Positions 6,495 to 47,011 of a stretch of 64,000 nt of DNA are shown here, piece after piece. Source of the stretch: a virus (lineage: Duplodnaviria; Heunggongvirae; Uroviricota; Caudoviricetes); the IMG/VR virus record IMGVR_UViG_3300032287_000839, positions 45,794-109,793 of that record, one strand, 5' to 3'. The notes beneath the pieces were generated by a model. That model ran no database searches. It was given only the letters and a program-made list of their open reading frames with translations, and was not told where the DNA came from. The position numbers and the translations under genes were made by a program. Numbering within the stretch: position 1 is the stretch's first letter; every line of letters starts with the position of its first letter.

Positions 6495-6863
6495 TTAGTA
6501 GGGTTGATAGGACTTTTCCTCTATAAACTCAGACCCATACTTTATATTAATTTCTTTTTTAATATGTGCTCTTTTATCATTCAGTAAGTAAACACTTCTG
6601 GCTAGCTGAACAAAGTGATCATCAAATATCTTGTTTCTTTCACATTCTCTTAGTCTATCTTCTACACCCCAAAGCTTTTTATTTACCCAAAGCAACTCAT
6701 CTGTCATAGGATCGTGTAATATCTCAGGTTCAATCACTGTATTTAAATAGTTCTTCTCAGTAAAAACATTCTTAAGCTTATCTTTATCTGTTATATTTAA
6801 AGCTTTGATAGAAAGGATGGTCCATTTGTCCACCACTTCTCCAACACTAACCTCTATCTTCAT
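6495..6863 (-). CDS. hypothetical protein
   Basis: 122-aa ORF, transcribed divergently from the glycosyltransferase gene. No recognisable motif. Confidence 0.5.
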   Translation of the reverse strand: MKIEVSVGEVVDKWTILSIKALNITDKDKLKNVFTEKNYLNTVIEPEILHDPMTDELLWVNKKLWGVEDRLRECERNKIFDDHFVQLARSVYLLNDKRAHIKKEINIKYGSEFIEEKSYQPY

Positions 6864-6872
6864 AAAAATTTA

Positions 6873-6903
6873 TTGTATATTATCCACAAATATACTAACT
6901 TTG
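6873..6903 (+). promoter_or_regulatory. Bacteroidetes-type promoter for the glycosyltransferase gene (TTG, 20 nt, TAACTTTG)
   Basis: The plus strand reads TTATTGTATATTATCCACAAATATACTAACTTTG. The -7 element lies 18 nt upstream of the ATG at 6922. Confidence 0.4.
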
Positions 6904-6921
6904 TTTAAAATAATCAACACA

Positions 6922-12800: not shown

Positions 12801-12857
12801 TACGCAAGTGCTATTAAGTATAATTGGACAAGGTTCTGCAGAACAAGTGATGTTCAT
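9825..12857 (-). CDS. collagen-like tail fiber with a C-terminal S74-type intramolecular chaperone (self-cleaving) domain
   Basis: Two long G-X-Y blocks (GTSGTSGTSG...). The C-terminus has the SVSDMRYKKEV motif (Ser/Lys dyad pattern SD.R.K) followed by a coiled-coil tail. The N-terminus carries the conserved fiber-anchor motif GINTNDSIQTALEKIDARL. Confidence 0.85.
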   Translation of the reverse strand: MNITCSAEPCPIILNSTCVFYEGADLIYTGINTNDSIQTALEKIDARLAVVNGTSGTSGTSGTSGINGTSGSSGSSGLTGSSGTSGSSGSSGVRGTHGSNGTSGSTGSAGTSGSSGTRGTSGSGGTSGTSGTRGTSGSSGISGSNGTSGTSGTTGTSGSNGSSGSSGTSSTSGTTGSAGTSGTNGSNGTSGIDGTSGTSGIDGTSGTSGTTGTSGTSGTDGSNGTSGTDGTGGTSGTSGTDGTSGTTGTSGTSSTGGTSGTTGTSGTDGTSGTTGTSGTGGTSGVNGISNNLFFYQAKTTSQSGDPGIGYIIWDNATQISSTSININHTTDNDIDIDIFLALLQETQQITIQDQNDSANNQIWDITGTPTNSTNYWTIPVTLISSAGTGTTNFANNHPLFIAIVSQSGTSGTSGTPGTSGSAGTSGTPGTSGTTGTSGTGGTSGSSGTDGTGGTSGSSGTDGTGGTSSTGGTSGTTGTSGTAGTSGINGTSGTTGTSGSSGTSGINGTSGANGTSGTSGVNGTSGINGTSGVNGTSGVSGTSGSSGTTGTSGTSVAVSGTTNTMTKFTSATTIGNSALTDNGSTLAYGGNTVLNAANYNSYSPTLTGGAASGTWGISITGSAGSVAWGNVSSKPANIMYYQGFTLDANTMDTNSTGFTYSVNAPWTGPIARFSAGGSYDLQLNAAYSGGGVAISYRTRNGDVGSWNSWFQFITTANIGSQTVSAASSATYLNSNNYIQQTGSTGSWNNDFTNTPAGTARYSGDVGANGTNGPGGSWWIQQNFRHTNGGSFWGTQVAWGWEDNANRLATRNVSGGSFGGWVYYMNTNAYPYAANMDQYVRTTDGVTFGSIYSPGNLQWAGQEYFQGRYKYLWYGYWSQWLDIYGGIGGGSLFYMDTLYATYGSVSDMRYKKEVSKLTYGLNELLQMDTIKFKYDLPDNHVSKGDKTFHLGFSAQQLQDLIPELIIEDKNFNMLAITQTELLAVVVNGMKEQQEIIKNQQLEINNIKQLINN
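11195..11660. repeat. collagen-like coding tandem repeat, block 2 (9-nt G-T/S-S units)
   Basis: Encodes (GTS/GSS/GTT)n. Its antisense reads as PV-rich pseudo-ORFs. Confidence 0.8.
12005..12695. repeat. collagen-like coding tandem repeat, block 1
   Basis: Encodes about 230 aa of G-X-Y triplets. Antisense ORFs 11986..12570 and 12607..12798 are artefacts of the repeat. Confidence 0.8.
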
Positions 12858-12892
12858 AATAAATATATGTTATGTGTAATCTATTAATATGC

Positions 12893-12927
12893 AATAGACA
12901 CATAGCCTTAAATAGCTTGTGTCTATA
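12893..12927 (-). promoter_or_regulatory. leader hairpin upstream of the fiber gene (ATAGACACA ... TGTGTCTAT)
   Basis: A 9-bp perfect inverted repeat with a 15-nt loop. A TATTTTTG -7-like element lies upstream on the minus strand, but the -33 element is weak. Confidence 0.3.
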
Positions 12928-12960
12928 TTTACAAAAATAGTTAAAATTATTTAATTTAAA

Positions 12961-12996
12961 TGTTTTATAAAAACTATTGCTATATAATATAGCAAT
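12961..12996 (-). terminator. perfect 21-nt palindrome (ATTGCTATAT-A-ATATAGCAAT) followed by a U-run on the minus strand, 4 nt after the 1642-aa gene stop
   Basis: 10-bp arms. The minus strand continues AGUUUUUAUAAAACA. Candidate intrinsic terminator. Confidence 0.4.
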
Positions 12997-12999
12997 GTT

Positions 13000-15900
13000 T
13001 TACTTACCATATCCAGCTTGAGATTGTGCTTTAATTCCTAATTCTTTAGCCATCTCTGGAAAGAACATTGGTAAATATGCTCCTATTTGAGATCCTATAG
13101 GGAAAGACTTCATTGCATATTTAAGTACGAAGTTTTTCTTAAGAGCTTTCTCATCACCTTCGTATAAATAGAACAGTTCTTTACCACCGTTCACAACTAC
13201 CTTTCTCATATTTTCTATTAGTCCTACAGCAGGGAATATACCTTTTGATGTAAGACTTAGTATACTAGTTGGATCATAGAAGTAGGTAATCTCATCTTTA
13301 AACTTATCTACAGCTTTCATTAAATACTTATACTTATTTCTAACTGCTGGATCTTCTTTATCATCAGGAGCAAATGCTTTAAGTCCCATGGCAAGAGCCC
13401 ACATACTAGCAAAGAACATTACGTCTAACAACTGAGATTTGACGTTTTGATTAACCAAGTTTAAGAATTCTCCCTCAGTCATCTCAAGATCTTTTCCTGT
13501 ATCAGCTTTATAATCTGCTGCTTTTTTCTCGTGTAAAGTTCTCATTTGAGCAACCCACTTATCACCATTACCTCTAATAGCACTTTGTAAACTATCTAAT
13601 GATCCTAAGAAGTCACTTGAAACCACTCTATACATCATACGCATTCTTCCCCACTCATAAGCATCAGAAGCTGAGTTGTATTTTAAGTTACCTAAACGTA
13701 CATCCACAAGTCCAGGAATCCAGTTCTTAAATAACATCATCGATGCACCATATATAGTTTGGTTAATAGGACGTATATCATCTGGTCCTAAAGATCCTAA
13801 CGCATTCTTAGTTAATGCTTGTACGTTTCTTCTTAATTTAACTACTGATTCTGATTTTCTTTCTACACCAGGTATAACTAATTTACCATCAACTAGTTCT
13901 GCTGATTTCATTACACTCTTCTCTTCTATAAGATCTTTAACGTCTTTTTCAAACTTCTCATTTCTAGCTTTTCTTTCTTCATTCGTACCAGCAAACATAT
14001 TACTATATTCATCTGTATTCCTTAAATACTCTCTAGCATTTACCACTTCTCCATTCTGAACAATAGAGTTATCTAAGAAGCTATAGAAGTTAGTTGTCTG
14101 TACATTCAAATCAGAACTTCTCATAAGAATCATCAAGAAGTCTTGAATTCTTTCTTGAGTTAACTTATTGACAGACAATAGTTTAGCTATTTCTGCATTA
14201 TAGTTTTCGTTAAGAGGAAGGAAATATTCTAATGCAGCAATGTATTTCTTTTTATCTCCACCAATCATCTTACCTGGAAGTATCCAAGCTTGATTGCGTA
14301 AGTAGTCTGCTTTAGTAAAATACTTACCAGAGTTAATAATTGATTGAGCATTACCACCAAAGTAGTTAGATGCTGCAGATAAGAAGTTTAATCCTAAAGC
14401 AGTGATTTGAAATTGTGTATTTAAATTACTAACTACCTTATTGAAACTAATTTGTTTTCCTTCTAAGTTTTCTGGGAATATATTACGTCCAATCTTTTTA
14501 TTAATTTTCTCTCCATAGTTACCAAACTTACCTAATATCTGGTCAAAACTATCACTAGTTACATATTTCTGTCCATAGATGATAGCTTTCATCATGTCTT
14601 CATAAAGCTTAGTGTTCTCACTATTGTCTGGTGTATATACTAAATCACCTGCTGCATCTCTTTGAGTTTTACCAAAAACAGACGTAGCAATAGCTTTCTT
14701 GTTTCTTTCTGTATTTAATATACCTATAGCTTGTTCTTCTAACTCACTTAAGTATTTATACTTAATAGCCATCTCATTGTACAAAGACATGGTTCTAAAC
14801 AAATCAGTGCTCACCTCTCCATCAATCTCTCTTGTAAAGTATCTAGGGATGGTATTTATAGGTTGTCCTGTAATAGGATTAAATTTACCAAATCCTATAT
14901 CACCCTCATCAACAGTGATGCTTCTAATAAATTGCTCACCTACAGATATTTTTCCACCAAATACAATCTTCTCCATTATTCCTTTTCTAACAAAAGGAAG
15001 GAATGTTCTAACATCTCCTTTATTAATATATCCAATCTCAGCATACTCTTTATTCTTTTCTTGAATGTATTCATAAAAAGCTTTAGCAGCTGGAACACTT
15101 TGTAATTTCTTCCATTCAGCAGTTTCCAAATCAGCTTTAGGATGTTTATTGATTAAAATATATTGGAACCAACCAGCACCTGTTTTATTAGAAATGTCAT
15201 ATTTTCTTCTCATTTGAGAAATCTCATCAGCTTCTGCTTCTAAATTCTCTACATCAGTTCCCACTCTACTAGACATCTTGTTCTCAATTCTTAATTGCTC
15301 TTCTGCAATCTTTTCTTCAAGAGCAGCCTTGTAAGCTTCAACATCTACATTATCTCTAATCCAATCTACATCCTTCTCATTAATTTTTTGTTTTAATGTA
15401 CTGAAGAATTTAGGATCGTATTGATCAATAAGTTCGTTACTATCTTTTTTCTTTAATATATCAAAGTAGTTTTTACCTGACAAGTTTTGACTTTTAGCCC
15501 ATACATCAAAGTCTTTCTTAAGTTTTTCTAGTCTTCTTGTCTCATCAAGAGTATCAAATCCAGCATAAGCAAAAGCCTTATTAGCCTTTCTATATAATGT
15601 TTGAATAGCTGCAGTTTGAAATACACGAGTGGAACCAAACCATTTACCTATACCTTTAATAACCTTCTCAGGAGAAAGTAAATTTTTAATGTCTACACTA
15701 GCAGAAGTTACTGTTTCGTTAAACTCATCAGATAACTTTCTTAATTGTGACTGTAGCTTTCTAGCCTCTTTTGCAGTGCGTGTTAACTCTGTTTCAAGCT
15801 TTTTATCTTCCTCAGATAAATCTCCACCAAACAAGAAATCAAGTTCTGTATCTAAGTTTGTATAGATGGTGATAGTTTCTTCAGCATTATTAATCTCTTC

Positions 15901-17928
15901 AATCAATTCAGTTATCTCTGCTTCTGAGAAAGACTTAGGATCTTTTCCTTTAAACTTATCGTTATACTTATTTATTAAATTAGACAATTGTCTATTTAAC
16001 ACCTTAGCCTGAGTCAACAAAGGAGCAATGTTACCTCTCATTTGTAACTGTCTAATACTTGTAAATAGAATATCTAATTGTTCATTCTTGTTAAGTTTTT
16101 CAGAAGGAGTTACACCTTTTTCAGAAAGTCTTTTAAATTCATCATTAAGTTTAACTAATAGATCGTCAATTTCTTTATTTCCTGTAGTTTCTGTTTCTAA
16201 ACCTAATGGGATTAAATAATCCTGCTTAATGTTCTCAGTATAAACATCTCCTATTTCAATACCTTTAATTTTAGGAATCTCTTTAGTTGTAAGATTCATT
16301 TGTGTGTATTCAGCCCTAATAGGAATCATTCTTGTTTGATCAAAGTCTTTTAGATTAACCCCATAGTTATTCTGAAGAATAAGCTTATATTGATTCATTT
16401 GGTTTCTCCAAGAATTAATATAATACCAAGGCAATTTACCCTTGTTTCTTTTTATATCAACATCAATAAACTTCCAGTCAAGGATGTTCACCTTTCCATC
16501 AGGAGTGATTGCTAAGAAATCTATTGTACCAGCTACACCTCTTTTAGCATCATAAACAACAACCTCAGATAAAAATCTAGTTCCTCTAGGGAATGTATTT
16601 AATCTCTGTTTTAAGTTATCTCTAAGAAGCTCATAGTAGTCTCTATTGTTAGGGTCTAATTGAGATGTATATCCTAAATCATCTAATGGATCTTCTCTTA
16701 AATTACCATCCTTGTCTACAAATAGACCAAGTGCATATTCAATATCAGAGTGACCTTTGGTACCATTAAGTGCTTTATCTTCATCTACTAATTGCTTGTA
16801 TTCAGACTTAGTTAATTGGTTAGCATCTAATAAATCTTTATTCCAACCTTTGATAATCTCAGTAACTCTAAAAGGTACCTTCTTATTATCTATATAATAA
16901 CCATCTTCTCTTTTCTCAATCTTATCTCTAATCGAATTGATGTTATCGATTATCTGTTGTTGAGAAGTTTTCTGTAAGTAAACATCTCCTTCCTCAGCTC
17001 TAATATCTTCAGCTGTACCAATTGCTTCTCCAGACATCACCTTAATAGCAGCCTCATCAAAACCTGTTTTAACAAACAAGTTCTTGATAGCATTGATTAT
17101 CTTCTCCCACCAGCTCTCCACCTTAGCTAAGTTCTCAGGATTCTCTAATGTTCCTTCAGCTTTATTAATAATAGTTTCAGATAGCACCTTAGCAATAGCC
17201 TCTTTCTTTAACTTGATGATATCAGGTTTACCTTCTTTAGTTTGATAGTTCTTATCATTACCATAGGTTTTAAACACCTCATTAAGGATAGCATAGTTAT
17301 TAATCTCCTTTAACAGTTGATTAAATAACTTAGGATCATTCTGTTGTATAATCTCTACAGCAAAGTGCATAGCTTCCTCAGGAAGTGCTACAGCTTCTTT
17401 ACCTTCTACAACCTGTACAAGCTTCTGCATGATGTTAGCAACACCATTAGCATCTTGTGTTATACCATCTATATTAATAGACTTAAGTGTCTGAATATCA
17501 ACACCTATTCTATTTAAGAAATCTTTAACAATAGCTATACTAGCAGGAGATGCAGCAGATGCAGGGATTCCTTCTTTCTGAAAGAACTCACCTCTATCTT
17601 CTTCTGTATATCCACCTCTCTCTTTTTCATCTTCTGTTAATGCACCAGCTTCTTCTTCTAATGCTTTCTTATAGTCATCAAAGTATTGTTGAGTCAAGTT
17701 ATCTGATGGACTAATATAGTAATGATTTCTACTAGTAAAACTAGGAGTGATTACATCCTCTTTGAATTGTTGATTAACTTGTCTAGCAGCCTCTGCAGCT
17801 TTAGGAGCATCAGTTATTTCAAGCATATCGTTTTGATCAAGCGATTGCTTAAAACCTTCATAACCTAAAGCTTTTTCTCTAGCTTCATCAATGATGTCAT
17901 ATTTGATATCTAATAAACATTTGCCCAT
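13000..17928 (-). CDS. giant virion or cargo protein (1642 aa) with a PD-(D/E)xK-like motif and C-terminal hydrophobic segments
   Basis: Single uninterrupted ORF. Motif GTIDFLAITPDGKVNILDWKF (D...D.K spacing typical of PD-(D/E)xK). Hydrophobic helices near the C-terminus. Confidence 0.6.
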   Translation of the reverse strand: MGKCLLDIKYDIIDEAREKALGYEGFKQSLDQNDMLEITDAPKAAEAARQVNQQFKEDVITPSFTSRNHYYISPSDNLTQQYFDDYKKALEEEAGALTEDEKERGGYTEEDRGEFFQKEGIPASAASPASIAIVKDFLNRIGVDIQTLKSINIDGITQDANGVANIMQKLVQVVEGKEAVALPEEAMHFAVEIIQQNDPKLFNQLLKEINNYAILNEVFKTYGNDKNYQTKEGKPDIIKLKKEAIAKVLSETIINKAEGTLENPENLAKVESWWEKIINAIKNLFVKTGFDEAAIKVMSGEAIGTAEDIRAEEGDVYLQKTSQQQIIDNINSIRDKIEKREDGYYIDNKKVPFRVTEIIKGWNKDLLDANQLTKSEYKQLVDEDKALNGTKGHSDIEYALGLFVDKDGNLREDPLDDLGYTSQLDPNNRDYYELLRDNLKQRLNTFPRGTRFLSEVVVYDAKRGVAGTIDFLAITPDGKVNILDWKFIDVDIKRNKGKLPWYYINSWRNQMNQYKLILQNNYGVNLKDFDQTRMIPIRAEYTQMNLTTKEIPKIKGIEIGDVYTENIKQDYLIPLGLETETTGNKEIDDLLVKLNDEFKRLSEKGVTPSEKLNKNEQLDILFTSIRQLQMRGNIAPLLTQAKVLNRQLSNLINKYNDKFKGKDPKSFSEAEITELIEEINNAEETITIYTNLDTELDFLFGGDLSEEDKKLETELTRTAKEARKLQSQLRKLSDEFNETVTSASVDIKNLLSPEKVIKGIGKWFGSTRVFQTAAIQTLYRKANKAFAYAGFDTLDETRRLEKLKKDFDVWAKSQNLSGKNYFDILKKKDSNELIDQYDPKFFSTLKQKINEKDVDWIRDNVDVEAYKAALEEKIAEEQLRIENKMSSRVGTDVENLEAEADEISQMRRKYDISNKTGAGWFQYILINKHPKADLETAEWKKLQSVPAAKAFYEYIQEKNKEYAEIGYINKGDVRTFLPFVRKGIMEKIVFGGKISVGEQFIRSITVDEGDIGFGKFNPITGQPINTIPRYFTREIDGEVSTDLFRTMSLYNEMAIKYKYLSELEEQAIGILNTERNKKAIATSVFGKTQRDAAGDLVYTPDNSENTKLYEDMMKAIIYGQKYVTSDSFDQILGKFGNYGEKINKKIGRNIFPENLEGKQISFNKVVSNLNTQFQITALGLNFLSAASNYFGGNAQSIINSGKYFTKADYLRNQAWILPGKMIGGDKKKYIAALEYFLPLNENYNAEIAKLLSVNKLTQERIQDFLMILMRSSDLNVQTTNFYSFLDNSIVQNGEVVNAREYLRNTDEYSNMFAGTNEERKARNEKFEKDVKDLIEEKSVMKSAELVDGKLVIPGVERKSESVVKLRRNVQALTKNALGSLGPDDIRPINQTIYGASMMLFKNWIPGLVDVRLGNLKYNSASDAYEWGRMRMMYRVVSSDFLGSLDSLQSAIRGNGDKWVAQMRTLHEKKAADYKADTGKDLEMTEGEFLNLVNQNVKSQLLDVMFFASMWALAMGLKAFAPDDKEDPAVRNKYKYLMKAVDKFKDEITYFYDPTSILSLTSKGIFPAVGLIENMRKVVVNGGKELFYLYEGDEKALKKNFVLKYAMKSFPIGSQIGAYLPMFFPEMAKELGIKAQSQAGYGK

Positions 17929-20900
17929 TATCCGCAGTTATTTTGGTTGTTATCTTTAATTGGAGGTAATCCTTCTGGCTTAATCTCTTTAGCTTCGTTT
18001 TGTAAAGGTACAGTTTCTTCTTTTGTTTCTGTAAAATAATCAATAATTTTTTGACTAAGAATCTCATTTTCTACCTTCACTGTACCATTATTAAATACAG
18101 ACTTTCTAGTGTCATTGTACATTTCTGTAGCAAATTGACCATCTCCCCAAAGGTTGATAGCTTTATAGTATACATTAGAACCTCTACTAAACTCTGTTCC
18201 ATCCTCATATTTAACTTTCTGGAAGCCCATTACATCATTTAAAGATGTATCACCTGCAGCTTTTCTTTTAGCATAGTCAGCTCTTGTTACAGGCTTATTG
18301 TCAATAATATCAATCATTTGACTACCGTTGTTTACCACTCTAGGAATCAATATGTAATCAGAACCAACATCAGCAAAGTTATCAAATCTGTCAAGAACCA
18401 ATATATTCTTAACTCCTTCTTCAGACAAATCTTCTAATGTAGGGAATTGTTCAAACTGAACATCTACAATAAGCTCTCCTTTATCATTAAATCCTTCATT
18501 ATATAAGCTTGGGACAACATTAGTTAATTTCTTAAATATGTTTTCATCTTTCCAGTTGTTTCTTTCAAATGCACCAAACTTACTGAAGTTAGTTAAGTTT
18601 AAATCAGACGCTACTGAGTTAACAGCATTTTCCACTCTCTTAGCATAATCCTCAATAGGAATGATGTTCTTAATAGATATAGCTGATTGGTATGTTCCTT
18701 GAAGGATAGCCAAGTCTACTATCTTATTATATAAAGCATTTGTAGCTGGATTATCTCTAAGCTCTCTCATCATGCCAGTGTATAAGTTCTCATCAAAAGA
18801 ATCCTTAAGATTAGCTTTCAACTTAATACTCTTAGCACCACCAACTCTATTAGAAGCAGCTTGAGTTAATTGCTGTAAGATTTCCATATCTGGATTTTCC
18901 TTTCTAGCTTTAACTATTTCTCCTGCAACTGCTGTATATGGATCAATTAATAATTCTCTTGTTCTATCAGATAAGTCAGTCTTAGTCTGGAAAATATAGT
19001 CAATAAATGATGCCTTGATCTTAGCAGCAATTGTATCAAAATTCTCAGCACTTAAATATTCATTAGCTGTATATGGTTCTAACACCTTACTAGTAATAAC
19101 TGAATACTGAAGTTGATCAAGTTTTAATATAGCTCCTAGTGCATTCATAGACTTTTCAGCTAAGTTAGCTTGTCCACCTATAAATGAATTATCTAATATG
19201 TCTTTAGCAGATGTAAATATATTTGACTCTTCAGCTGTTTCTGTTCTCATTCTTTTCTTATCCATAGCCTCTGCACTTCTAAACTTAGTAGTGTCATAGT
19301 TAGTAGCCTGTGTAAGTTTAAATGCATATTGAGCCATCTTATGATACTTCAAGAACTCAGCTAATATTCTTTGTTGTTCAGCATTATTAATAGCCTTACC
19401 AGCATAATAGTTCTCAATATTAGGAGCAAGATTCTTCATCTCAATCTTTGCAGCAGCAGCTGATTTTCTATCAGTTGGAAACTTAGCTCTAATTGCATCT
19501 AAGTTCTTTTTGCTATACACAGATTTAGAATCAATACTATCTAAGTAGTTCAAGTACTCCTTAATAATAGGTTGGTTCAAGAATAATGCTGTAGTTTTTA
19601 CAGGGCTTCCTATTCTTGTTAAGAACATTGCTGTACCAATAACATTATTACTACTAACCACCTTAAGGATATATGGGTTCTTAGCCACATCAACAAATGA
19701 TGTAATGAATCCAGATAAGTTATCAGATATGTATTTACCTGCTTTATCCTTTGTTCCAGATAAAGATACTACCTCTTTACCATTGATTGTCACTGTGTTA
19801 TGAGGAAGAGCTATTTGACCATTGCCTAATATCTTTCTTTCATAATCATTTAATTCAGCAACCTTAACAGGATCAATATACACTTCTCCTTTCTGAGCTA
19901 ATGAATGGTTTGTAATGTTTACAGCACCAATACCTACCCACCTCTTAGCAGTAACAAATGCATGTCTTAATGATGTCATATAGTTACCATCAAGAATTCT
20001 GTTCTTAACTTTACTTTCATCTACCCCTCTAAGCTTATCTAATTCACTAGCCATATTTTCTAATCCACCATCAGATACAGGATTAATCAATCTTTCATAG
20101 TTCTCAGGAAGAGTTAATAATTTCTCAAGACTGTCAAAGTATTGATTCTCAAGGGATTGTTTATATAATTTATCTGCTAATGTACCATAATCATCTTCTG
20201 TAGCTACTACAGTTCTTTCATTAATATCAAAGATACTTTCTAAGTCTTCTTTCAATATAAACTTCTTAATAGCTGCTTTAGCTTCTTCACCATATCCAAA
20301 GAATGGAACTTCTTTTAATTGACCTTTGGAGTTAACATATGTATTCTTTAAATAGATATTAAGCTTATCTATATCAAAGTCAGATCCTGCTTTGCTAGTA
20401 ATCTCAGAAGGTACAACAACTGTATCTCCCATAGATTGTGGTAAGAAACCTTTGATTTTAAATACCTCTGCAGAACTTAATGCCTGTGTAGGAATACGGA
20501 AACCAATACCTCTAAGAATTGATTCATTCTCAGGCTTGTTTAAATATGTTAATAATTCTTCATCAGACTTAAATCCAGCTTTCTTAAACTGATCTTTGAA
20601 TGAATGAGGAATTAATATTTCTATGTATGGTTTATCTTTAGTGTAGAACTTCAATACAGGGTTAGCTTGTTTAGCATCTCTCTTTCCAGACTCCCATAGA
20701 GTTGAAGGAACTTGCACCTTAGCACCACCATTCATCTTAGGAGAGATAAGAGCCTTATCCACCATAGAGTAAAGAATGTTTCTAATTTGTGCGTATGCAG
20801 GAGATGATTCAAATGGAATTGGAAACTCTCCATTCTCATCAATTTTGATTGTATCTCTAATATTATCAGCCAACTCTCTTCTTGCCATTTCATACTCAAG

Positions 20901-23900
20901 AGCTTGAGACACACTTACAGGATCAACTAAATTATATCCATCACCAAGATCTTCAATACCTAACTTATCTAATAGTTGATTGTAAGCTTCTAAATGTAAT
21001 GCATCTAATATCTTTTTGTTACGTGCATATTCTGCAGCAGCTTCAGGACTTGTAGCAACACCATTATCAAATATGTCTAAGCTAGATAACTTAGTAAGCT
21101 GAGAACCACGTGTTTGTGCTTTAGCTCCTGCATAACTATTCTCCACTTGAATACCATAAGTCTTCCAAGCTACAGGGATAATATTATCAAATGCTTCAGT
21201 ATTAACTTCACCATCTTTATATAAGTCATATAACTTCTCAGCACCTACTTTTCTACCAGATTCAAATACAGCATAACCAACCCCTTGCTTCCACATGTTA
21301 GTATACAAAGTCTCTAAGTTAGTTCCTTCTACAGTTTTGTAGTAAAGAGGCATTTGAGAGAACTTATCTAATACCAAATCAAACTGATTCTTACCATATT
21401 TATTACCAGATACAATAGGTTTCATTACCTCTGTAACATATTCAGGTTCAGGAGTTTTAAGTAATGCAACATCCTGCTTTTGAAGAGCTTTATTTGTATA
21501 AGCGTACAATCCTTTATTAGCAAATGCATCTCTTGTGTAAGCCATTTGCCATTGATGCCAAGCTTCAGCAGGACTGTTTAAATCCCACTCACCATTTCTA
21601 AGCTTAACTTCTCTGTATGTACCATCCATAATCATAGAAGCAGCATCTGCCTCATTAGTACCATTCTCAAGAACTATATCTTTAAGAGTAACAGTATTTA
21701 TATATGGTTTGAATGTATGATATCCAGGATCAAAAGAATTCAACGCTATTCCATTAGCCTTGTTATATTCTACATTATGAAATGAGTTAAATTCAGGGCT
21801 ATCAAATGTAGTTCTTCTAGGAGATAAGAATGATTTGATACGCTTAGTCTCATCTAGATTACCTTTCTTAATAGCAAACTGATACGGATCACCAAACAAT
21901 GCTTTGTGCATTTCTATGTTATTGATAACATAGTTAATCCTAGCAAAGGTTAAAATATCATTTATATCATCTTCTGTCAATGATTCCTTATTCAATTTCT
22001 CAGCTGTAGTAAACTTACCATCTAAAGAATCATACTTAAACGTACCATTAGGATTGTTAACAATCTTATTGTTGTACATTAGTATGTTCTTAGTTTCAAC
22101 CACATTGTTTTCAATAAACGCTTTTACATCAGCATTGATCTTCTCAATATTTTCATTAATATATGTATCAATTTCTTCTTGTGTAGCACCATTGATAATC
22201 AAGTTGTTAACACCAGATAATGTCTTACCTGTAAGAATATCCTTAAAGAAACGTAACTCTTTAGCTTTATTTAAATTTTTAAAATTATCAGTAACGTTTG
22301 CTAAATAATCTCTATCACTTTGAGCCAAAGCAATGTCATCTTTTAAATATCCTTTGAATATTGTATATGTTTTATTCCAAGCTAATCCACCACTCACCTC
22401 AGCAAACTTAACATTGTTACCTAAGTTAATCATCCATTCTGTAGATGAATCTGCTGGGTTTAATATATAGTAGTTACCATTAAGGTTTTGGTTAAGCTCT
22501 TGTGTAAATCTGTTACCAAGAGTCAATCCTGTAGTAGATACACTTGTATCATTATCTTGATTCTTTGTACCATCAATGTAAGAAACTATTAATGATTTAA
22601 TTCTCTTACCTGCAGCATTAAAGAACAATCCTCCCTTCTTAAGGAATTGAGAATGTGTAGAGAATACATCATTAAGCTCAGGTCTAGCTGCCATCACTTC
22701 TTCTAATGTATTAGCCTCATTCACCTCATTTGCAAATACTGAAGGAGCGTTATTCTCAGAATAAGCTTGTCTCTTTTCACCTTCAACATTAGGGAATGTA
22801 CTATCCTGAACAGGATTTTCCACCTTAACATATAATTCAGCTAATGTATCTAATGGACCATTAATACCTAATGTCTCACCAGTCACTGTAGCTATCTCTT
22901 TTGTTGTTCCAAAATATGTATGAATAGAAGCTACAGCTTTAACAAACTCATCTCTTTGTTCAGGTTTCAACTTTAAATAAGTATCTAATGTATACGCAAC
23001 ACCAATCTTATTTAAGAAGTCTACCATCTTTTGTGGTGTGCTAATATCTACACCTTCTGTAGACATCACTTTATAAGTCTTTTGACCTTTATTATATCTA
23101 ACAAAAGAATTAGGATCTGTAGATAAGTCCTTAAGATTATTTACCCAATCCTCCTTAGTTTGTTTAGTTACAGTGAATTGATTAGCAGGAGCTGTATATA
23201 CATCTCCACCACTAACATATTGCACTAGTGCCTGAGGATTTTGTTTTGTAAAGGTCTGATAGAACTGTACAAACAATCTCCAATCATGTGGTTCAAACTT
23301 GCTAAAGTCTATCTCCATTGAGTTTCTATCACCCTTCATACGAGTGAATAATCTAACATAATTAGAGTCATACTTAGCTAAGTCTGTCAACTTATCTACC
23401 ATCTTACTCACCTTAGTAGTGTTAGCTAACTTATCTATCACTGTAGCAAATGATCTACTGAAAGATAAAAGCTTCAAGAAACCTTTTGTAGCACCTTCAG
23501 TTACAGCCGCTTTAGGCAAAGATAATGTAGAACTATTCACTTGGTTAGTAGGAGCAGTTTCCACCAATGTACCTACTAATAACTTAACAGGGAATGGTGA
23601 GTTTTTCTTCCAGTCTGTAGTGAATGCTTCTGGAGCATATAATTTATTATTTACATTCTCTGCATTGATATCTAATAAGTTATCCTCATCAAACTCAATT
23701 TTAAATGTACGTAAGAATTCTTTTGTTTTAATCACAAGATCAGACCAAGTCTCATCTCCAACCACTTTATTCTCTTCTGCATACTCAGCTTTAATGCCAT
23801 TGAATATATCAGAAGCAGTTAAGTTAGAGATATCATATAATGACTTATTTGTACCAAAGACATTTCTAAACACTCTAGCAGTCATGTCTTTAACAATATC

Positions 23901-26900
23901 ATTAGTTTGACCTTCTGTTAATCCTTCAGCAGCTCTATATTCAGGAGCTGCAGATTTAACAGCTTCAGATAATCTAGCACCCTTATATTTACCTGTATCA
24001 ATAGCTTTGAACAACTCTTCTTTTCTAGAAGGCTTGTTTACAAATGATTTAACAAAGTCAATAATACTTCTAAAGAAGTTTAATATTCTTTCACCAATGT
24101 TTCTAGCTGGTAGCTTACCAAGTCTAAAATCAGCAAAGTCATCTGCTATTCTTTCCTTAGCTTGTTGGTCTGTAGCCTCTTCATAGAATAACATCTTACC
24201 AGACTCTCTATCTTTGAACTTACCAGCTTTAGCTTTAAATTCATCAAGGATAGCTTGTTGCTCTTCTTGAGACAAGAACCCTTTCCATATACCCTCAAAT
24301 ATCTCATGATATTCTGTACCTCTCTGACCACCTTTGTAGAACTTAGCCACACCATTCTCAAATACACCCCAAGCCTTTTGACCATCATTTATAGTGATAA
24401 TACGATTTAATATCTCAAAAGGAATATTAGGAACATTCTTAGCATGCCATTCTTTGAACAATTCAATCTCAGCATCTGTCATTCCTTCAACATCCTCTTG
24501 ACCTAACATTCTATATTCAGAATCCTTAGGTGCTTTAGAGTTGCTTAAGTCTGTTTTAGTTTCAGTTAGTTTAACTTCTTCTTCTTCAACAACTGTTTCA
24601 ACTACAGGAGCAACTTGTGTTTCTTTCTGAATCTCAGCAGCAATTCTAAGTTTAAGATAGTCTTTAACTATACCAAGGTCATCTTTACTAGCATCAAAAC
24701 TATCATTACCTTTTAATGCTTCTACAATTGTACCAACCTTAGCTTCATCTTTAGCTATGTCTGTAACTGTTTTATTATCATTGATTTTTACAAATGTATT
24801 ACCATTTGCATCTCTTGTAGCTGTAAACAATACAGGACCAGTTGATAAGTCAAACACGTTCTCTGTAGCACCATCTAAAGTGTACCCACCAATAACATTG
24901 GTTGCTTCTTGTGCTTGAACAGTAGGTTTAACTACTATCTCAGGAAGTTCCATTCCTTCTAGGATAGCATATCTTTGTTTGAAGTTGTAAGGAACAGCAT
25001 CTGTAACCTTTGCTACGTTTGTAGACAAAGGAGTTTCACTAATAGATCTAGAAGACCCATCAGGAAACTTATCTGCTAATAAATATGTTTGATAATTATC
25101 CCACTCACTAACTACTAAATTACCATCAGGACCAATGTGTGGTTCTAAGAATTTATCATGGAATTTCTTGGTAAGTGTATCTCTATTAAGGTTTTGATAC
25201 ACACCTTTTAATTGATTAACTATTGCATCTTCTGCTTCAGCAATCTTAGTTAGGTCATACTTTTCCTTACCTAACTCAAGATTCATTGTATTACTGTTAA
25301 TAAAGATTTGATTAGCACTGATAGCTCCCTTACTTCTCCAATACAATACATTCTGCAAATATGTAGAATATAACCTATTGATTTTGATTGGTTTACCAGC
25401 AGCTAATTGATTATTAACTTCTTCAGAGATTTTCTTTAAAACTTCAAATACACCTTTAGCTTCTTTAGCTGTAAAGGTTCTACCTCTTACACCTTGTAGT
25501 GTATCATTATATTGAATGTAAGGATGTCCAACAGGAACCTTAACTTGCTTTCCTTTATGGAATATAAATCCATTGCTAGATACTTGAATCAATCCTTCTT
25601 GTGTAGATACTACATCTTGAGGAACTAATGTACCAGCAATGTTATTTCTTTCATTCTGAACAGTGATAGGAATACCATTAGACACTGTAAAATTGTACAC
25701 CTTATATCCAGGTGCAGCAAATAACTCAGCTCTTTTAACTCTCCATCCAGCAGCCTTAGCTTCAGCTAAATCTTTTTGATCAGCTCTATATCTAGGAGAC
25801 TTATCAGCATATCTTAAACTTGTGGTAGGCATGGTATTAAATACCACCTTATTCATATCCATCTTCTCACCCACCTTAGCAACACGCTTACCTTCTTTAT
25901 CTACAAAGTAAACATTATCACCATCTTGTTCTACATAAACAGCAACTACTAATCCTGTATCCACATTTGTAGCATCAGCTACATCAGCTAAAGGTTTACC
26001 ATATTGCATCTCAGCAAGACCACTTAACCCAAGAGCATCCTCTTGATTAGGAGTAACTAAAATAGTTTTAATTCTAGCTTTATTAGCAAATCCACCAACA
26101 TTATTTAAGAACTCAATAGCACGTGCCTGATGAGGTTTAGCTACAAAGTTATCTCCTTCGTACTCAGAGATTGTACGTTCATACAATATATTAGCATCTA
26201 CTAATCTACCTTCCTCTAAATTTATAACAACAGATGAATCAACTGTAGCAACATCACCAGAGTTAAGTTCAATCTCAGCTTGTTCTTTGTTTATATCATC
26301 AGAAAACTTCTGTAACTTCTCTTGTTCAGTTTGAACCTTTTCATATCCAGTTAACTTATCAGTACTAATGTTTTGAATATCTCCATTGATATCTTCCACC
26401 TTAACAGTACCATCAGGATTTACAGCAAGTATCTTAACTCTACGGAAATCTGATAAGTCATCATTAATATCAGTAGCTGCGTTATTTGCAGCTGTTTCTG
26501 TTTTATAGAATGTAACTTCTCCACTAGGAGCAGTCACTTGATATCTGTCCTCATCAATTTTATCTACCTTAGCCTTATCAAGACTAATGTTTACATATTC
26601 TCTTCCCTGTTGTACATCTTCTCTTTGACCCCCCTTATTAACAAAACTATAAAGTCGTTCAGCTTTTGGTTGTTCTACACCCTTTTCTTCTTTTTCTTGC
26701 TTCTTCTCATCAGCTTTTTCATCTTCTTCAACTTGATCAGCAAGATCATTAGCTACTTCATCAGCTTGATCAAAGTACTTTTGAAAACCTTCTTTGGTAT
26801 TTAGTTCATCAAAAGCTTTAGATGCATCTCTTCTTCTCTTGTTTAAATTATTAATATCAACACCATATTGTATTAACTTATCAGCACTACCAACAGGAAC

Positions 26901-29354
26901 TAAATTATCTCTAGTTGCATCCTGACCATTTAATTCAAAGTTCAACAATTCCTCAAATGTCTTATCATATATCTTATCATCTGCCAATAAAGAATTAATT
27001 CTTTCAGAGTTTGTACGTAGGGCTTTAACTTGATCCTTAATTAATCTTCTATCAGCAGGAGTAGTGTACTCAGTAATTGTTTTGTTTAAGTTACTAGCTT
27101 TTTGCTCATAAAAATCACGTAGTTCTTTTAATCTTTCAGCATTAGTAAGTTGACTAAGTGTATTATTACTAATTAAAGGATTAATTCCATTTACAGAATT
27201 TTGAATTGCATTCAGTCTACCAGCTACATTTTTAGTTGTAACAGCATAATAAGCTAGATCGTTTTTATAATCTTCAAACTTATTATAGTTATTTGCCTCA
27301 AATATTGAATTTAACTCCTCTTCACTAGGATTGTTTATATCTTTAACTTTAGGATTATTCTTAAACGGATTAACTAAGTTGTTGCTAATCATATCCGCTG
27401 TAGACTTAATCTCATTTGCTTTAGCAATTAAATTATCTACATATTCACCTACAGTTGTTTTATTTGTAGAGTTCCAATCTAATTGGAATAATCTTTCAAA
27501 ATCTTCTTTCTTAAGATCTTTAAGCATTTTCAATTGCTCAATTGTTACATCATGCATTCCACCAGGAATACGTGATTGTACAAAGTTGAAGAATTGATCA
27601 TCTTGTAAATTCTTAAATTTAAATACATCACCAGATCTATTTGCTGCTTCCATTTCTTTAGCAATAGCAGCTGATGTTAATGTACTGTCGTACATTTGTT
27701 TCAATGTATTAGTAAGTCCTACATTATTAACAATATTAATAGCATTAGCTAATCTAGCATTTGCACCTTTTCCTTTATAATTATCATACACACGTTGACC
27801 ACCACCTACAACTAATCCTGTAAGAGCACCAATCAACATGTTCTCAATACCCTCTTGACTACCAAACTGTTGGTTCATACCATACACAGTAGACTTGATA
27901 ACCTCATTTAACTCATCTCTACCTTCTTTATAGTTACGATTTTTATACTTTCTTGTATAGTAATCATATGTTCCTTTTTCTGCAGCAAACTGTCCACCTT
28001 CTTCAAATACACCTTCTGAAAACATTGTAGAAACAGTTGGTCTAATGTTATCCCAAACTCTTCCAGCAAATGTGCTTGCAGCTTTCTTTTCAAATACATC
28101 AAGACTACCTTCTTGTAATCCTATTTTACCTGCTCCTTCTATACCTTGTTGTAAACCACCAGCAACAGGACCAGCACCTCCAGCAATCATTGACTTATAA
28201 AGGTTACCAAACATCAATGTATTAGATGCTGTTAAGAGAGCCATGTTTATACCAAATCTAGTATTCATACCAGCATTAGCATAATTCTCTATTTCTTGCA
28301 TTGCTTTAGCATCAGGCTCTTGATTAAAGTTGTCAAACTTATATTGATTGATTAACTCATCTTTAATCTTTCTATAGCCCTCTCTAGCCTCAACAGCTGC
28401 TTCTGTTAAAGAAGAACCGTATATAGCCATACCATATCTAAAACCATTATTCACTCTAGCTGCTGCAGCTAATTGAGCTGCTTTATTCATATTAAGAATA
28501 AACTTCTCACTCTTATTTAAGTCTGTTGCTAAATTTTCAAGTCTAGTTAATTGTGAAAGATTTTTTGCACCAAGCACTCTACCCATTGCAGTTTCAGCAC
28601 TAAATAGCTTATTTAAATATAAACTAGCTTTACCAACTTGAGCAGCCACTAATGGAATTTCTCCAATACCTTCTGTCACAAGACCTATAGCAACATCTTG
28701 TGCAGCAGCACCAAGAACACTACCTGCCATGAAACCTAAATTAGGTATAAATTTTTCACCCCAGAAGTAAGAACTTCCTTCTGCACCTGGAATAATACCA
28801 AGATATGGATGAGCTTTAGCATATGCACTTTGATAAGTAGGCATCCACTTATCTAAGTTATTCATCCAACCATCAATAACTCCTTCATATCCATCAGGAT
28901 CTCCTGATAGTTTACTTATATCACGATTCTTAATTGCAGAAATTGTATTAGGAATGTTTGTTAAGCTTTGAGCAAATGTACCAGCAGTTTTACCAACACC
29001 TTTAATTACACCTCTTGCAAGGTTACCATACCAAGATTGTGTTTGTGCATTAATGTCTTCTAGGTCACCAAGGTCTCTACCATATACAGGATAGCGTTGG
29101 TTAGCAAGAAGTTCACTTTGTGGAATATATCCAAAAGTTTGACCAAATCCCCCAGGACCAGGCATTTGACCTAATTGTTCTAATTCTGCAATACTATAAC
29201 CTCTTCTACTTACAGGAATATTCATAGGACCACCACCCTCACGTATGTCTAGAGGTAATGTTTTAGGAGATCCTATAGGCACAACAGGACTCCCTAAATT
29301 AGGGTCCATTGATAGACGTTCATCATTCATCAGTTCATCTGTTAAACTCGCCAT
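17928..29354 (-). CDS. giant virion protein (3808 aa); candidate crAss-like virion-packaged RNA polymerase
   Basis: Uninterrupted 11.4-kb ORF. Motif AGSDFDIDKLNIY at 20366..20380, a DxDxD metal-binding-like triad as in DPBB RNAP catalytic sites. Its N-terminus MASLTDE resembles that of the preceding 886-aa protein. Confidence 0.55.
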   Translation of the reverse strand: MASLTDELMNDERLSMDPNLGSPVVPIGSPKTLPLDIREGGGPMNIPVSRRGYSIAELEQLGQMPGPGGFGQTFGYIPQSELLANQRYPVYGRDLGDLEDINAQTQSWYGNLARGVIKGVGKTAGTFAQSLTNIPNTISAIKNRDISKLSGDPDGYEGVIDGWMNNLDKWMPTYQSAYAKAHPYLGIIPGAEGSSYFWGEKFIPNLGFMAGSVLGAAAQDVAIGLVTEGIGEIPLVAAQVGKASLYLNKLFSAETAMGRVLGAKNLSQLTRLENLATDLNKSEKFILNMNKAAQLAAAARVNNGFRYGMAIYGSSLTEAAVEAREGYRKIKDELINQYKFDNFNQEPDAKAMQEIENYANAGMNTRFGINMALLTASNTLMFGNLYKSMIAGGAGPVAGGLQQGIEGAGKIGLQEGSLDVFEKKAASTFAGRVWDNIRPTVSTMFSEGVFEEGGQFAAEKGTYDYYTRKYKNRNYKEGRDELNEVIKSTVYGMNQQFGSQEGIENMLIGALTGLVVGGGQRVYDNYKGKGANARLANAINIVNNVGLTNTLKQMYDSTLTSAAIAKEMEAANRSGDVFKFKNLQDDQFFNFVQSRIPGGMHDVTIEQLKMLKDLKKEDFERLFQLDWNSTNKTTVGEYVDNLIAKANEIKSTADMISNNLVNPFKNNPKVKDINNPSEEELNSIFEANNYNKFEDYKNDLAYYAVTTKNVAGRLNAIQNSVNGINPLISNNTLSQLTNAERLKELRDFYEQKASNLNKTITEYTTPADRRLIKDQVKALRTNSERINSLLADDKIYDKTFEELLNFELNGQDATRDNLVPVGSADKLIQYGVDINNLNKRRRDASKAFDELNTKEGFQKYFDQADEVANDLADQVEEDEKADEKKQEKEEKGVEQPKAERLYSFVNKGGQREDVQQGREYVNISLDKAKVDKIDEDRYQVTAPSGEVTFYKTETAANNAATDINDDLSDFRRVKILAVNPDGTVKVEDINGDIQNISTDKLTGYEKVQTEQEKLQKFSDDINKEQAEIELNSGDVATVDSSVVINLEEGRLVDANILYERTISEYEGDNFVAKPHQARAIEFLNNVGGFANKARIKTILVTPNQEDALGLSGLAEMQYGKPLADVADATNVDTGLVVAVYVEQDGDNVYFVDKEGKRVAKVGEKMDMNKVVFNTMPTTSLRYADKSPRYRADQKDLAEAKAAGWRVKRAELFAAPGYKVYNFTVSNGIPITVQNERNNIAGTLVPQDVVSTQEGLIQVSSNGFIFHKGKQVKVPVGHPYIQYNDTLQGVRGRTFTAKEAKGVFEVLKKISEEVNNQLAAGKPIKINRLYSTYLQNVLYWRSKGAISANQIFINSNTMNLELGKEKYDLTKIAEAEDAIVNQLKGVYQNLNRDTLTKKFHDKFLEPHIGPDGNLVVSEWDNYQTYLLADKFPDGSSRSISETPLSTNVAKVTDAVPYNFKQRYAILEGMELPEIVVKPTVQAQEATNVIGGYTLDGATENVFDLSTGPVLFTATRDANGNTFVKINDNKTVTDIAKDEAKVGTIVEALKGNDSFDASKDDLGIVKDYLKLRIAAEIQKETQVAPVVETVVEEEEVKLTETKTDLSNSKAPKDSEYRMLGQEDVEGMTDAEIELFKEWHAKNVPNIPFEILNRIITINDGQKAWGVFENGVAKFYKGGQRGTEYHEIFEGIWKGFLSQEEQQAILDEFKAKAGKFKDRESGKMLFYEEATDQQAKERIADDFADFRLGKLPARNIGERILNFFRSIIDFVKSFVNKPSRKEELFKAIDTGKYKGARLSEAVKSAAPEYRAAEGLTEGQTNDIVKDMTARVFRNVFGTNKSLYDISNLTASDIFNGIKAEYAEENKVVGDETWSDLVIKTKEFLRTFKIEFDEDNLLDINAENVNNKLYAPEAFTTDWKKNSPFPVKLLVGTLVETAPTNQVNSSTLSLPKAAVTEGATKGFLKLLSFSRSFATVIDKLANTTKVSKMVDKLTDLAKYDSNYVRLFTRMKGDRNSMEIDFSKFEPHDWRLFVQFYQTFTKQNPQALVQYVSGGDVYTAPANQFTVTKQTKEDWVNNLKDLSTDPNSFVRYNKGQKTYKVMSTEGVDISTPQKMVDFLNKIGVAYTLDTYLKLKPEQRDEFVKAVASIHTYFGTTKEIATVTGETLGINGPLDTLAELYVKVENPVQDSTFPNVEGEKRQAYSENNAPSVFANEVNEANTLEEVMAARPELNDVFSTHSQFLKKGGLFFNAAGKRIKSLIVSYIDGTKNQDNDTSVSTTGLTLGNRFTQELNQNLNGNYYILNPADSSTEWMINLGNNVKFAEVSGGLAWNKTYTIFKGYLKDDIALAQSDRDYLANVTDNFKNLNKAKELRFFKDILTGKTLSGVNNLIINGATQEEIDTYINENIEKINADVKAFIENNVVETKNILMYNNKIVNNPNGTFKYDSLDGKFTTAEKLNKESLTEDDINDILTFARINYVINNIEMHKALFGDPYQFAIKKGNLDETKRIKSFLSPRRTTFDSPEFNSFHNVEYNKANGIALNSFDPGYHTFKPYINTVTLKDIVLENGTNEADAASMIMDGTYREVKLRNGEWDLNSPAEAWHQWQMAYTRDAFANKGLYAYTNKALQKQDVALLKTPEPEYVTEVMKPIVSGNKYGKNQFDLVLDKFSQMPLYYKTVEGTNLETLYTNMWKQGVGYAVFESGRKVGAEKLYDLYKDGEVNTEAFDNIIPVAWKTYGIQVENSYAGAKAQTRGSQLTKLSSLDIFDNGVATSPEAAAEYARNKKILDALHLEAYNQLLDKLGIEDLGDGYNLVDPVSVSQALEYEMARRELADNIRDTIKIDENGEFPIPFESSPAYAQIRNILYSMVDKALISPKMNGGAKVQVPSTLWESGKRDAKQANPVLKFYTKDKPYIEILIPHSFKDQFKKAGFKSDEELLTYLNKPENESILRGIGFRIPTQALSSAEVFKIKGFLPQSMGDTVVVPSEITSKAGSDFDIDKLNIYLKNTYVNSKGQLKEVPFFGYGEEAKAAIKKFILKEDLESIFDINERTVVATEDDYGTLADKLYKQSLENQYFDSLEKLLTLPENYERLINPVSDGGLENMASELDKLRGVDESKVKNRILDGNYMTSLRHAFVTAKRWVGIGAVNITNHSLAQKGEVYIDPVKVAELNDYERKILGNGQIALPHNTVTINGKEVVSLSGTKDKAGKYISDNLSGFITSFVDVAKNPYILKVVSSNNVIGTAMFLTRIGSPVKTTALFLNQPIIKEYLNYLDSIDSKSVYSKKNLDAIRAKFPTDRKSAAAAKIEMKNLAPNIENYYAGKAINNAEQQRILAEFLKYHKMAQYAFKLTQATNYDTTKFRSAEAMDKKRMRTETAEESNIFTSAKDILDNSFIGGQANLAEKSMNALGAILKLDQLQYSVITSKVLEPYTANEYLSAENFDTIAAKIKASFIDYIFQTKTDLSDRTRELLIDPYTAVAGEIVKARKENPDMEILQQLTQAASNRVGGAKSIKLKANLKDSFDENLYTGMMRELRDNPATNALYNKIVDLAILQGTYQSAISIKNIIPIEDYAKRVENAVNSVASDLNLTNFSKFGAFERNNWKDENIFKKLTNVVPSLYNEGFNDKGELIVDVQFEQFPTLEDLSEEGVKNILVLDRFDNFADVGSDYILIPRVVNNGSQMIDIIDNKPVTRADYAKRKAAGDTSLNDVMGFQKVKYEDGTEFSRGSNVYYKAINLWGDGQFATEMYNDTRKSVFNNGTVKVENEILSQKIIDYFTETKEETVPLQNEAKEIKPEGLPPIKDNNQNNCG

Positions 29355-46027: not shown

Positions 46028-46036
46028 AATTATTTA

Positions 46037-47011
46037 TTAATTTCTTGTCCAACCAGATCTACGAGCTCTATTTGGTAATTCGTACATGTTAAATCTATTA
46101 AGATCATTTTTGATCCTTCTTTGTTTAGTCCAAGGATCTTGTTTCTTAATCTCAATATCAGCCATGATAAACGCTTCTTCAGATAACTGTTTATAATAAG
46201 CAAGCTTTGATTGTATTTGTTGGAATGTTTCATCAGTTAACTGATTAGATAACATCTCAAACACCTTATATTTGATGAAGTGTTCTACATACTCTCTAAT
46301 ACGGTAATTATCAGGAATAAGTTGATTTCCAATAGTATCATATTCTGTAGCATAGAATATCAAATGAACTGTACCATTTCTAAAGTTGGTAACAAATTTG
46401 TTATCTCTAATATCAAATGAATCATAACTAGCTGAGCCAGGAGTGAATTCATGAATTGAAGGTGGTGGAGTGTAAAACTCCCAAGCATTAGTATATTCCA
46501 CATCACAGTTCTTTCTTACAGAGATGTTACCTGGTTTAAGCAAGTATTCATTTTTATAAGATCTAGCTACTGATTGGTTAGTTTTATATACAGCTTGTAT
46601 GATTTCAGGCATACATTGTCCTGAGCAATTATTATCATTGCATACAGGATTAACACAAGGACCTGTTCCTGTAGTAATAGGGCTCACTTGTATTGTTGTT
46701 TGACTAGATGCTTGAGAATAAAAAGAATTAGCTGTTTGAACAGGATAATTAGATGGGATCTCTGTACACATCCAAGCTTCTCTTACAGCATAGAAATTAT
46801 CTGGAAGTCTAGCTTCAAAATCATTTATATGCAAAATCTGTTCAGAGATGACATAAGTTGCTCTACCTAACTTCTTTAAACACTTGTCTAAATAAGTAGG
46901 GAACAATAGATCATCTACTGCACCTGTATCAAAATAACTTTTTAACTCTTCTTTAACAGTTGAATAAACTGGTTGAGGAGAAACAAAGTTGTACTTGTAA
47001 TAATATGACAT
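46037..47011 (-). CDS. hypothetical structural protein (324 aa)
   Basis: ORF contiguous with the tail cluster. Internal Cys cluster GPCVNPVCNDNNCSGQC. Confidence 0.55.
   Translation of the reverse strand: MSYYYKYNFVSPQPVYSTVKEELKSYFDTGAVDDLLFPTYLDKCLKKLGRATYVISEQILHINDFEARLPDNFYAVREAWMCTEIPSNYPVQTANSFYSQASSQTTIQVSPITTGTGPCVNPVCNDNNCSGQCMPEIIQAVYKTNQSVARSYKNEYLLKPGNISVRKNCDVEYTNAWEFYTPPPSIHEFTPGSASYDSFDIRDNKFVTNFRNGTVHLIFYATEYDTIGNQLIPDNYRIREYVEHFIKYKVFEMLSNQLTDETFQQIQSKLAYYKQLSEEAFIMADIEIKKQDPWTKQRRIKNDLNRFNMYELPNRARRSGWTRN

Follow-up and report, generated by a model that had tools for sequence, protein, structure and literature searches.

Is the 3808-residue protein encoded by a giant gene of this virus an RNA polymerase (RNAP), and if so, what accounts for the rest of its length? 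The gene lies in a stretch of 64,000 nucleotides (the window) from a virus of the class Caudoviricetes, positions 45,794 to 109,793 of the IMG/VR record IMGVR_UViG_3300032287_000839, where it forms a single open reading frame (ORF) of 3808 codons on the minus strand (17928..29354) with an ATG start, zero internal stops and the standard genetic code. An original prediction, made from the sequence alone, had proposed that a DFDID motif in this ORF marks a virion RNAP of the crAss-like type, fused into a giant protein. In the crAss-like phage phi14:2, the RNAP gp66 is packaged in the virion, accompanies the DNA into the cell, and transcribes the early genes; its activity needs Mg2+ and every Asp of its DFDID motif, and D-to-A changes abolish it (phi14:2 paper). 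Our best explanation, to which we assign a probability of roughly 0.87, is that the gene encodes a single chain of ~430 kDa, in which residues ~1-1800 are a homologue of the conserved crAss-like cargo protein (phi14:2 gp67, crAss001 Gp47), and residues ~1825-3808 are a homologue of gp66, the single-chain, two-barrel, DNA-dependent RNAP packaged in phi14:2 virions.

The polymerase half

The motif lies within AGSDFDIDKLNIY (residues 2989-3001, nt 20352..20390) and is the sole DxDxD in the protein. The original prediction was right about the motif and one base off in its position, which is 20367..20381 and not 20366..20380. By itself, DFDID is weak evidence, because a shuffled protein of 3808 residues is expected to contain 1.08 DxDxD by chance (0.046 for DFDxD). 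The argument that it did not arise by chance is drawn from homology, namely, the alignment to gp66 and the predicted fold, rather than from motif counts. When all PDB sequences were searched with phmmer, one protein was matched, 6VR4_A (phi14:2 gp66; E 2.4e-23), and BLASTP against gp66 (E 3e-38, ~25% identity, 1046 alignment columns) paired residues 2389-3355 with gp66 785-1747. According to the phi14:2 paper, this part of gp66 covers the two barrels, the connector (1095-1238), and DFDID (1361-1365), and the bridge helix and trigger loop of gp66 lie at 1529-1559 and 1598-1636. In both the phmmer and the BLASTP alignments, GSDFDIDK (2990-2997) pairs column for column with the gp66 catalytic motif, and its Ile agrees with the family rule for the fourth motif position, Ile or Val (DFD[I/V]D; phi14:2 paper). 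The gp66-type metal-binding loop of the original prediction is thus borne out by alignment and, as described below, by predicted fold.

Similarity of this kind extends to many other phages. When residues 2400-3400 were compared by tblastn with 50,697 phage records, 126 were matched, all at less than 60% identity (E 2e-33, 95% coverage), and these records belong overwhelmingly to crAss-like or Bacteroidota phages, with many labelled RNA polymerase. Megablast against phage genomes gave zero matches. Because of this empty result, and because the best identity to a protein of a cultured phage is ~25%, the phage GenBank collection searched contains no close relative of the virus.

From a 51-sequence alignment, residues 2400-3400 were modelled with AlphaFold2, and the model reached a mean predicted local distance difference test (pLDDT) score of 85.8 and a predicted template modelling (pTM) score of 0.81. 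Foldseek, which had been suggested at the outset as a check for a double-psi beta-barrel fold around the motif, ranked 6VR4 first among PDB structures (E 2.1e-32, probability 1.0, TMq 0.72, 1137 columns), followed by maize RDR2 (E 6e-4); the matches below RDR2 were non-significant (E > 0.01) and consisted mostly of Pol I A190, bacterial beta', and jumbo-phage RNAPs. The model places both barrels on one chain and DFDID in an inter-strand loop of the second barrel, and one of its helices aligns with the gp66 bridge helix. Together, these predictions support the presence of two double-psi beta-barrels, a connector, a bridge helix, and a trigger loop in one chain. The finding that would have spoken against the original prediction, a lack of any double-psi barrel around the motif, was thus not made.

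The core thus resembles gp66 in sequence (~25% identity), in the identical DFDID with Ile at the fourth position, in predicted fold, and in the place of its gene, which occupies the same point of the giant-gene block, following the tail and muzzle genes. It shares the two double-psi beta-barrels with a DxDxD loop with QDE-1/RDR2 and with the beta/beta' RNAPs, although there is no significant sequence similarity to QDE-1/RDR2 or to the multisubunit enzymes; the present protein also differs in being one chain rather than two subunits (for beta', a separate beta subunit provides the second barrel) and in having Ile, not Gly, at the fourth motif position (NADFDGD in beta').

Two other identities were weighed against these data. 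That the motif occurs by chance in a purely structural giant protein (tail, tape-measure, or internal-core) with no polymerase activity would be compatible with the 1.08 DxDxD expected per shuffled protein and with blank Pfam and PHROGs scans, yet it is highly improbable, as DFDID is aligned to the gp66 catalytic site inside a significant alignment of ~1000 residues, the predicted fold matches 6VR4, and DFDID or DFDVD is kept in most of 147 representatives of related clusters (see below). An N4-type virion RNAP, i.e., a giant protein of ~3500 residues with a T7-like single-subunit core, would be of comparable size, and polymerases of that type are also virion-packaged in podovirus-like phages; however, we give this reading next to no likelihood, since 6VR4 was the lone PDB sequence matched, the structures matched by fold were all two-barrel polymerases, with no match to a T7-like core of the N4-like (Schitoviridae) kind, and both motif and context are crAss-like. 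A tape-measure-fused RNAP of the P23-45 type was likewise rejected, the genome being that of a podovirus-like crAss phage with no tape-measure features.

The cargo half and the fused frame

The N-terminal half has other homologues. BLASTP aligned residues 217-517 collinearly with gp67 145-400 (E 2e-4), and a profile built from 21 sequences of this half matched gp67 65-420 in hhalign with a probability of 95.6% (E 1.3e-8). In addition, tblastn of residues 90-640 matched the N-terminus of crAss001 Gp47 (E 4e-9). Overall, residues ~98-525 are homologous to, and collinear with, the N-terminal regions of both gp67 and Gp47 ('putative RNA-polymerase subunit'), the latter being a 262.5-kDa 'RNA polymerase-associated' cargo protein seen in crAss001 virions by mass spectrometry. 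The module contains a Gly/Ala-rich, moderately hydrophobic segment at residues ~205-240, as judged by hydropathy, and an EGxxEEGGQ motif (residues 447-455) that is invariant in the alignment columns. No Pfam, PHROG, or PDB match was obtained for it, including with the N-terminal profile against PDB sequences.

In contrast to the arrangement found here, where the two are covalently joined, gp67 and Gp47 are proteins separate from their polymerases. The phi14:2 genes stand in the order g067 (1797 aa, virion protein), g066 (RNAP), and g065, with the gp67 gene directly upstream of the polymerase gene, while crAss001 has its Gp47 gene and its polymerase gene (Gp50) on opposite strands. In some relatives, too, the cargo module is within a separate upstream product of 1807-1927 aa. 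As these relatives encode both parts as separate genes, the ORF is a gp67-gp66 fusion, in which a Gp47-like cargo protein is joined to a gp66-like polymerase, as the original prediction of a fusion with cargo or ejection domains had anticipated. Relative to gp66 (2180 aa), the chain of 3808 aa has a gp67-like protein and a junction domain fused N-terminally, and the N-terminal ~785 residues of gp66 are without a detectable counterpart.

The existence of two genes in some relatives would also fit an artefact, i.e., an error of sequencing or assembly that joined two adjacent genes of the same strand, or a hidden interruption of the frame; moreover, the two genes of one relative (L005) share a frame, with one TAA between them, so that one base change switches between the states. 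Nevertheless, this explanation is very unlikely. Three independent IMG/VR contigs (L008, L009, and L010; 72-91% identity over the RNAP core) keep the whole frame open and retain DFDID, with fused frames that, counted from the first Met, have 3898, 4123, and 3840 aa, and therefore the 3808-codon ORF is not an assembly artefact. The alignment of residues 1600-1950 is unbroken in five more relatives. The uninterrupted 11.4-kb ORF of the original prediction accordingly stands.

To what extent the fused form is shared was judged from an exhaustive phmmer search with the core over 1.84 billion cluster representatives (50% identity clusters), which gave 2638 homologues (E <= 1e-30 for 746); size and motif counts were drawn from the 147 new best cluster representatives. 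A length of at least 3500 aa was found in 125 of the 147 and of at least 3808 aa in 117, with a median of 4116 aa and a maximum of 5650 aa, and all 125 long representatives matched the giant protein by BLASTP in every segment (N-terminal half, junction, core, and C-terminus), which further argues against an artefact. The sole DFDxD motif is DFDID in 100 of the 147 and DFDVD in 35, and most others have DFDID plus another. Two word-indexed searches gave mostly fragments of 600-2500 aa. A large environmental clade thus usually has the fused form, which is not peculiar to this genome, and 3808 aa lies under the median size of the clade. The statement that the protein would be far larger than described examples does not hold: besides the 125 long representatives, the fused gene of crAssphage cr52_1 has 4464 codons, and RNAP genes of up to ~6000 aa have been called a hallmark of the group (2023 review).

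In three of the polymerase-core homologues (P0028, P0031, and P0062), precomputed Pfam annotation shows PF08719, an additional enzymatic domain joined to the virion polymerase in some relatives; one source names P0062 a YbiA/DUF1768-type 'predicted NAD-dependent protein-ADP-ribosyltransferase'.

Among named phages, cr52_1 (NC_055888.1, Suoliviridae) has the same layout, with a long N-terminal part, a YHExxH junction, and an RNAP core with GSDFDIDKL (residue 3520), in a fused coding sequence at 42976..56370 (2809..16203 of L011). It differs in having 37 standard stop codons within its frame, as would fit stop-codon recoding, and the identity is ~24%. The RefSeq label of this product, 'nuclear pore complex protein-like protein', hides the fused polymerase. 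IAS virus was dropped as a fused example, its RNAP frame having just 2162 codons. The phi14:2 paper already noted that some phages have their polymerase fused with the neighbouring proteins as a 'huge polyprotein'. Unlike that gp65-gp66-gp67 polyprotein, the fusion described here has two parts: only the upstream gp67-like partner is joined, and the downstream 1642-aa gene is separate. The giant ORF is therefore a new, divergent member of a family already described in fused form. Positions of its segments and motifs are given in Table 1.

Table 1. Segments and motifs of the 3808-residue protein, with their positions in the window
Feature	Residues	Position (nt)	Strand	Remarks
Whole ORF	3808 aa	17928..29354, including stop codon	(-)	gp67/Gp47-like cargo and gp66-like virion RNA polymerase fusion (supported by sequence comparison)
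Cargo module	1-1580	24615..29354	(-)	phi14:2 gp67-like / crAss001 Gp47-like
gp67-homologous stretch	98-525	27780..29063	(-)	matches gp67 residues 65-420
Acidic linker	1581-1610	24525..24614	(-)	variable length; ~100-190 extra residues in close relatives
Junction domain	1611-1795	23970..24524	(-)	highly conserved among relatives
YHEIFE, in junction domain	1682-1687	24294..24311	(-)	H1683 and E1684 invariant
Split point of relatives	1796-1824	23883..23969	(-)	two-gene breaks of L002, L004, and L005 map here
N-terminal region of polymerase half	1825-2388	22191..23882	(-)	kept in relatives; no significant similarity to gp66 1-785
Two-barrel RNAP core	2389-3355	19290..22190	(-)	homologous to gp66 785-1747
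SGRKVGA, first barrel	2699-2705	21240..21260	(-)	K2702 and G2704 nearly invariant; resembles the beta-subunit GNKG motif
GFRIPTQ, second barrel	2951-2957	20484..20504	(-)	R2953 nearly invariant; pairs with gp66 GYRIPNQ
DFDID, predicted Mg-binding catalytic loop	2992-2996	20367..20381	(-)	aligned with gp66 D1361-D1365
Predicted bridge helix	3122-3152	19899..19991	(-)	aligned with gp66 1529-1559; model helix 724-756
C-terminal region	3356-3808	17931..19289	(-)	kept in relatives; no known fold assigned

The fate of the chain and the junction domain

By analogy with phi14:2 and with crAss001, whose homologous proteins were found in virions by mass spectrometry, the protein would be made late in infection and packed in the capsid as cargo. 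Upon infection of the next cell, it would be pushed through the tail, at least partly unfolded, ahead of or together with the DNA; crAss001 cargo proteins of such size must unfold at least partly for tail passage. After refolding in the cell, it would transcribe the early genes, with D2992, D2994, and D2996 predicted to hold the catalytic Mg2+, and the N-terminal module may take part in ejection or assist the polymerase as an accessory. The gp67/Gp47-like cargo and the virion RNAP share one polypeptide in the majority of close relatives, with at least 125 clusters (50% identity) of this form, and in the cultured phi14:2 and crAss001, they are separate, which argues that both proteins act together.

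Several observations weigh against this explanation. Within the barrel, model confidence is lowest at the catalytic loop (pLDDT ~63; model residues 591-600), the identity to gp66 is just ~25% and limited to the core, and scanning the entire protein with Pfam and PHROGs gave nothing usable. The N-terminal region of gp66, including the domain at residues 196-233 that blocks its cleft and through which the enzyme inhibits itself, is without a detectable counterpart (hhalign of residues 1796-2420 against gp66 1-900; probability 1.6%). Homology of the cargo half spans only ~430 of its ~1800 residues. Moreover, the best match of the N-terminal module in the phage database is in a cultured cyanophage, Leptolyngbya phage Lbo-JY46 (PP438436.1; 15761..28667 of L012), in which a 1552-aa protein matches residues 97-878 (E 1e-46). 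The adjoining 2748-aa protein of Lbo-JY46 has no DFDxD, and the RNAP-core profile found no match in the 33.5 kb examined; therefore, the cargo module is not limited to phages where a polymerase adjoins, and the role of the gp67-like module may be general ejection, not transcription. Finally, packaging, ejection, and activity of this particular protein are what we infer from the better-studied phages.

The segment that connects the two halves is of interest for what may become of the chain. Its junction domain follows the acidic linker and stands exactly before the split point of the relatives. Most relatives, like the present protein, have E at the fifth position of its HExx motif, and a minority have H, which gives the canonical HExxH. 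Of the 125 long homologues, 111 contain the pattern G[TS]x[YF]HE; cr52_1 has the domain as well. The AlphaFold2 model of the domain was of low confidence (pLDDT 63), and Foldseek found no meaningful match for it; in the PDB, its profile matched only a designed coiled coil, and Pfam gave noise.

The breaks in the relatives differ in kind. In L002/L003, a product of 1927 aa is followed by a GIY-YIG homing endonuclease exactly at the junction (15790..16440 of L002) and then by a product of 2373 aa. L005 encodes products of 1807 and 2216 aa in one shared frame (interval with the single TAA at 15380..15470), with ~75 residues around the junction duplicated, while L004 is in three pieces of 1895, 829, and 1282 aa (10001..22265). 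This suggests that the fused gene underwent repeated secondary fission, driven in part by mobile endonucleases.

A variant of our best explanation, rather than another identity for the protein, is that the chain is a polyprotein cleaved after synthesis or in the virion, near residues ~1580-1825, by the junction domain or by a neighbouring 1397-aa protein with a classical HEVAH motif. We regard this as possible, if doubtful. The phi14:2 paper calls the fused forms 'likely cleaved into individual components' and reports a zincin-like protease encoded in the block, and several features of the present locus would fit: (i) the split point of the relatives directly follows the junction domain; (ii) this domain has an invariant His-Glu pair, with the canonical HExxH in a minority; (iii) a hypervariable acidic linker lies ahead of it; and (iv) HEVAH is present in the 1397-aa protein. 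However, a peptidase has no support from fold or profile (pLDDT 63; no meaningful Foldseek, PDB, or Pfam match), the second ligand position is E, not H, in most relatives, and no cleavage site is definable from the sequence.

More speculative, and in our estimate improbable, are two further ideas, which draw on motif conservation and domain order: that, across this clade, an uncleaved ~430-kDa chain carries the polymerase and is tethered at the DNA entry channel by its Gp47/gp67-like ejection module, or that the HExx[E/H] junction domain is a self-processing metalloprotease of a kind not recognised before. Tethering would couple early transcription to genome entry; self-processing would mean that the junction metalloprotease releases and activates the polymerase after ejection. 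For the gp67-gp66 fusion itself, the analysis provides a secure annotation of the largest gene of the window; the joint action of the two proteins, as argued above, would be of use for studying how such phages eject and activate their polymerase, and knowledge of the enzyme family is unchanged.

Genomic context and neighbouring genes

The surrounding genes make up a typical crAss-like structural block. TerL (62242..63828), portal (59663..62242), and the major capsid protein (56141..57694) were found along with several other virion and tail proteins of the structural module of the window, and a metallophosphatase/exonuclease-like gene (48215..49522) matches phi14:2 g075 by position and annotation. 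An 1830-aa protein occupies the position of the muzzle protein, and the equivalent gene of relatives carries Pfam crAss_MUZ. It begins a row of large minus-strand genes encoding 1830, 287, 1397, 1114, 886, 3808, 1642, and 1010 aa, in which packing around the giant ORF is tight: the TAG of the upstream gene is 1 nt from its ATG, and its own TAA overlaps the ATG of the downstream 1642-aa gene. A collagen-like tail fibre and an endolysin lie beyond the giant-gene block, and no tRNA genes were found in the window. This order, from the head and tail genes through a muzzle-like gene to the giant genes, agrees with that of phi14:2 and of crAss-like relatives whose first giant gene is labelled crAss_MUZ, as the crAss-like context of the original prediction implied. 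The window is part of a divergent crAss-like phage, probably an environmental one.

The downstream 1642-aa protein (13000..17928, minus strand) is at the position of phi14:2 gp65 and has no similarity to it. Unlike the gp65 zincin, it carries a nuclease-like motif, with a match to a PHROG exonuclease family (E 4e-9) and a PD-(D/E)XK-like IDFL...LDWK (residues 320-527, nt 16348..16971); this segment gave no match in the PDB. From its sequence, the protein would probably be a cargo protein with a nuclease domain.

On the upstream side, the 1397-aa giant protein (35466..39659, minus strand) has its HEVAH at residues 372-376 (nt 38532..38546), while in phi14:2 the zincin-like motif (HEIMH) belongs to gp65, whose gene flanks that of the polymerase on the opposite side. 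The sole large plus-strand ORF (6805..8985, 726 aa) starts with TTG, shows weak glycosyltransferase-like similarity, and lies beside the 1010-aa tail fibre (9825..12857, minus strand), whose PHROG matches include 'collagen like minor tail'. In the same part of the window, around 6-10 kb, the GC skew switches sign.

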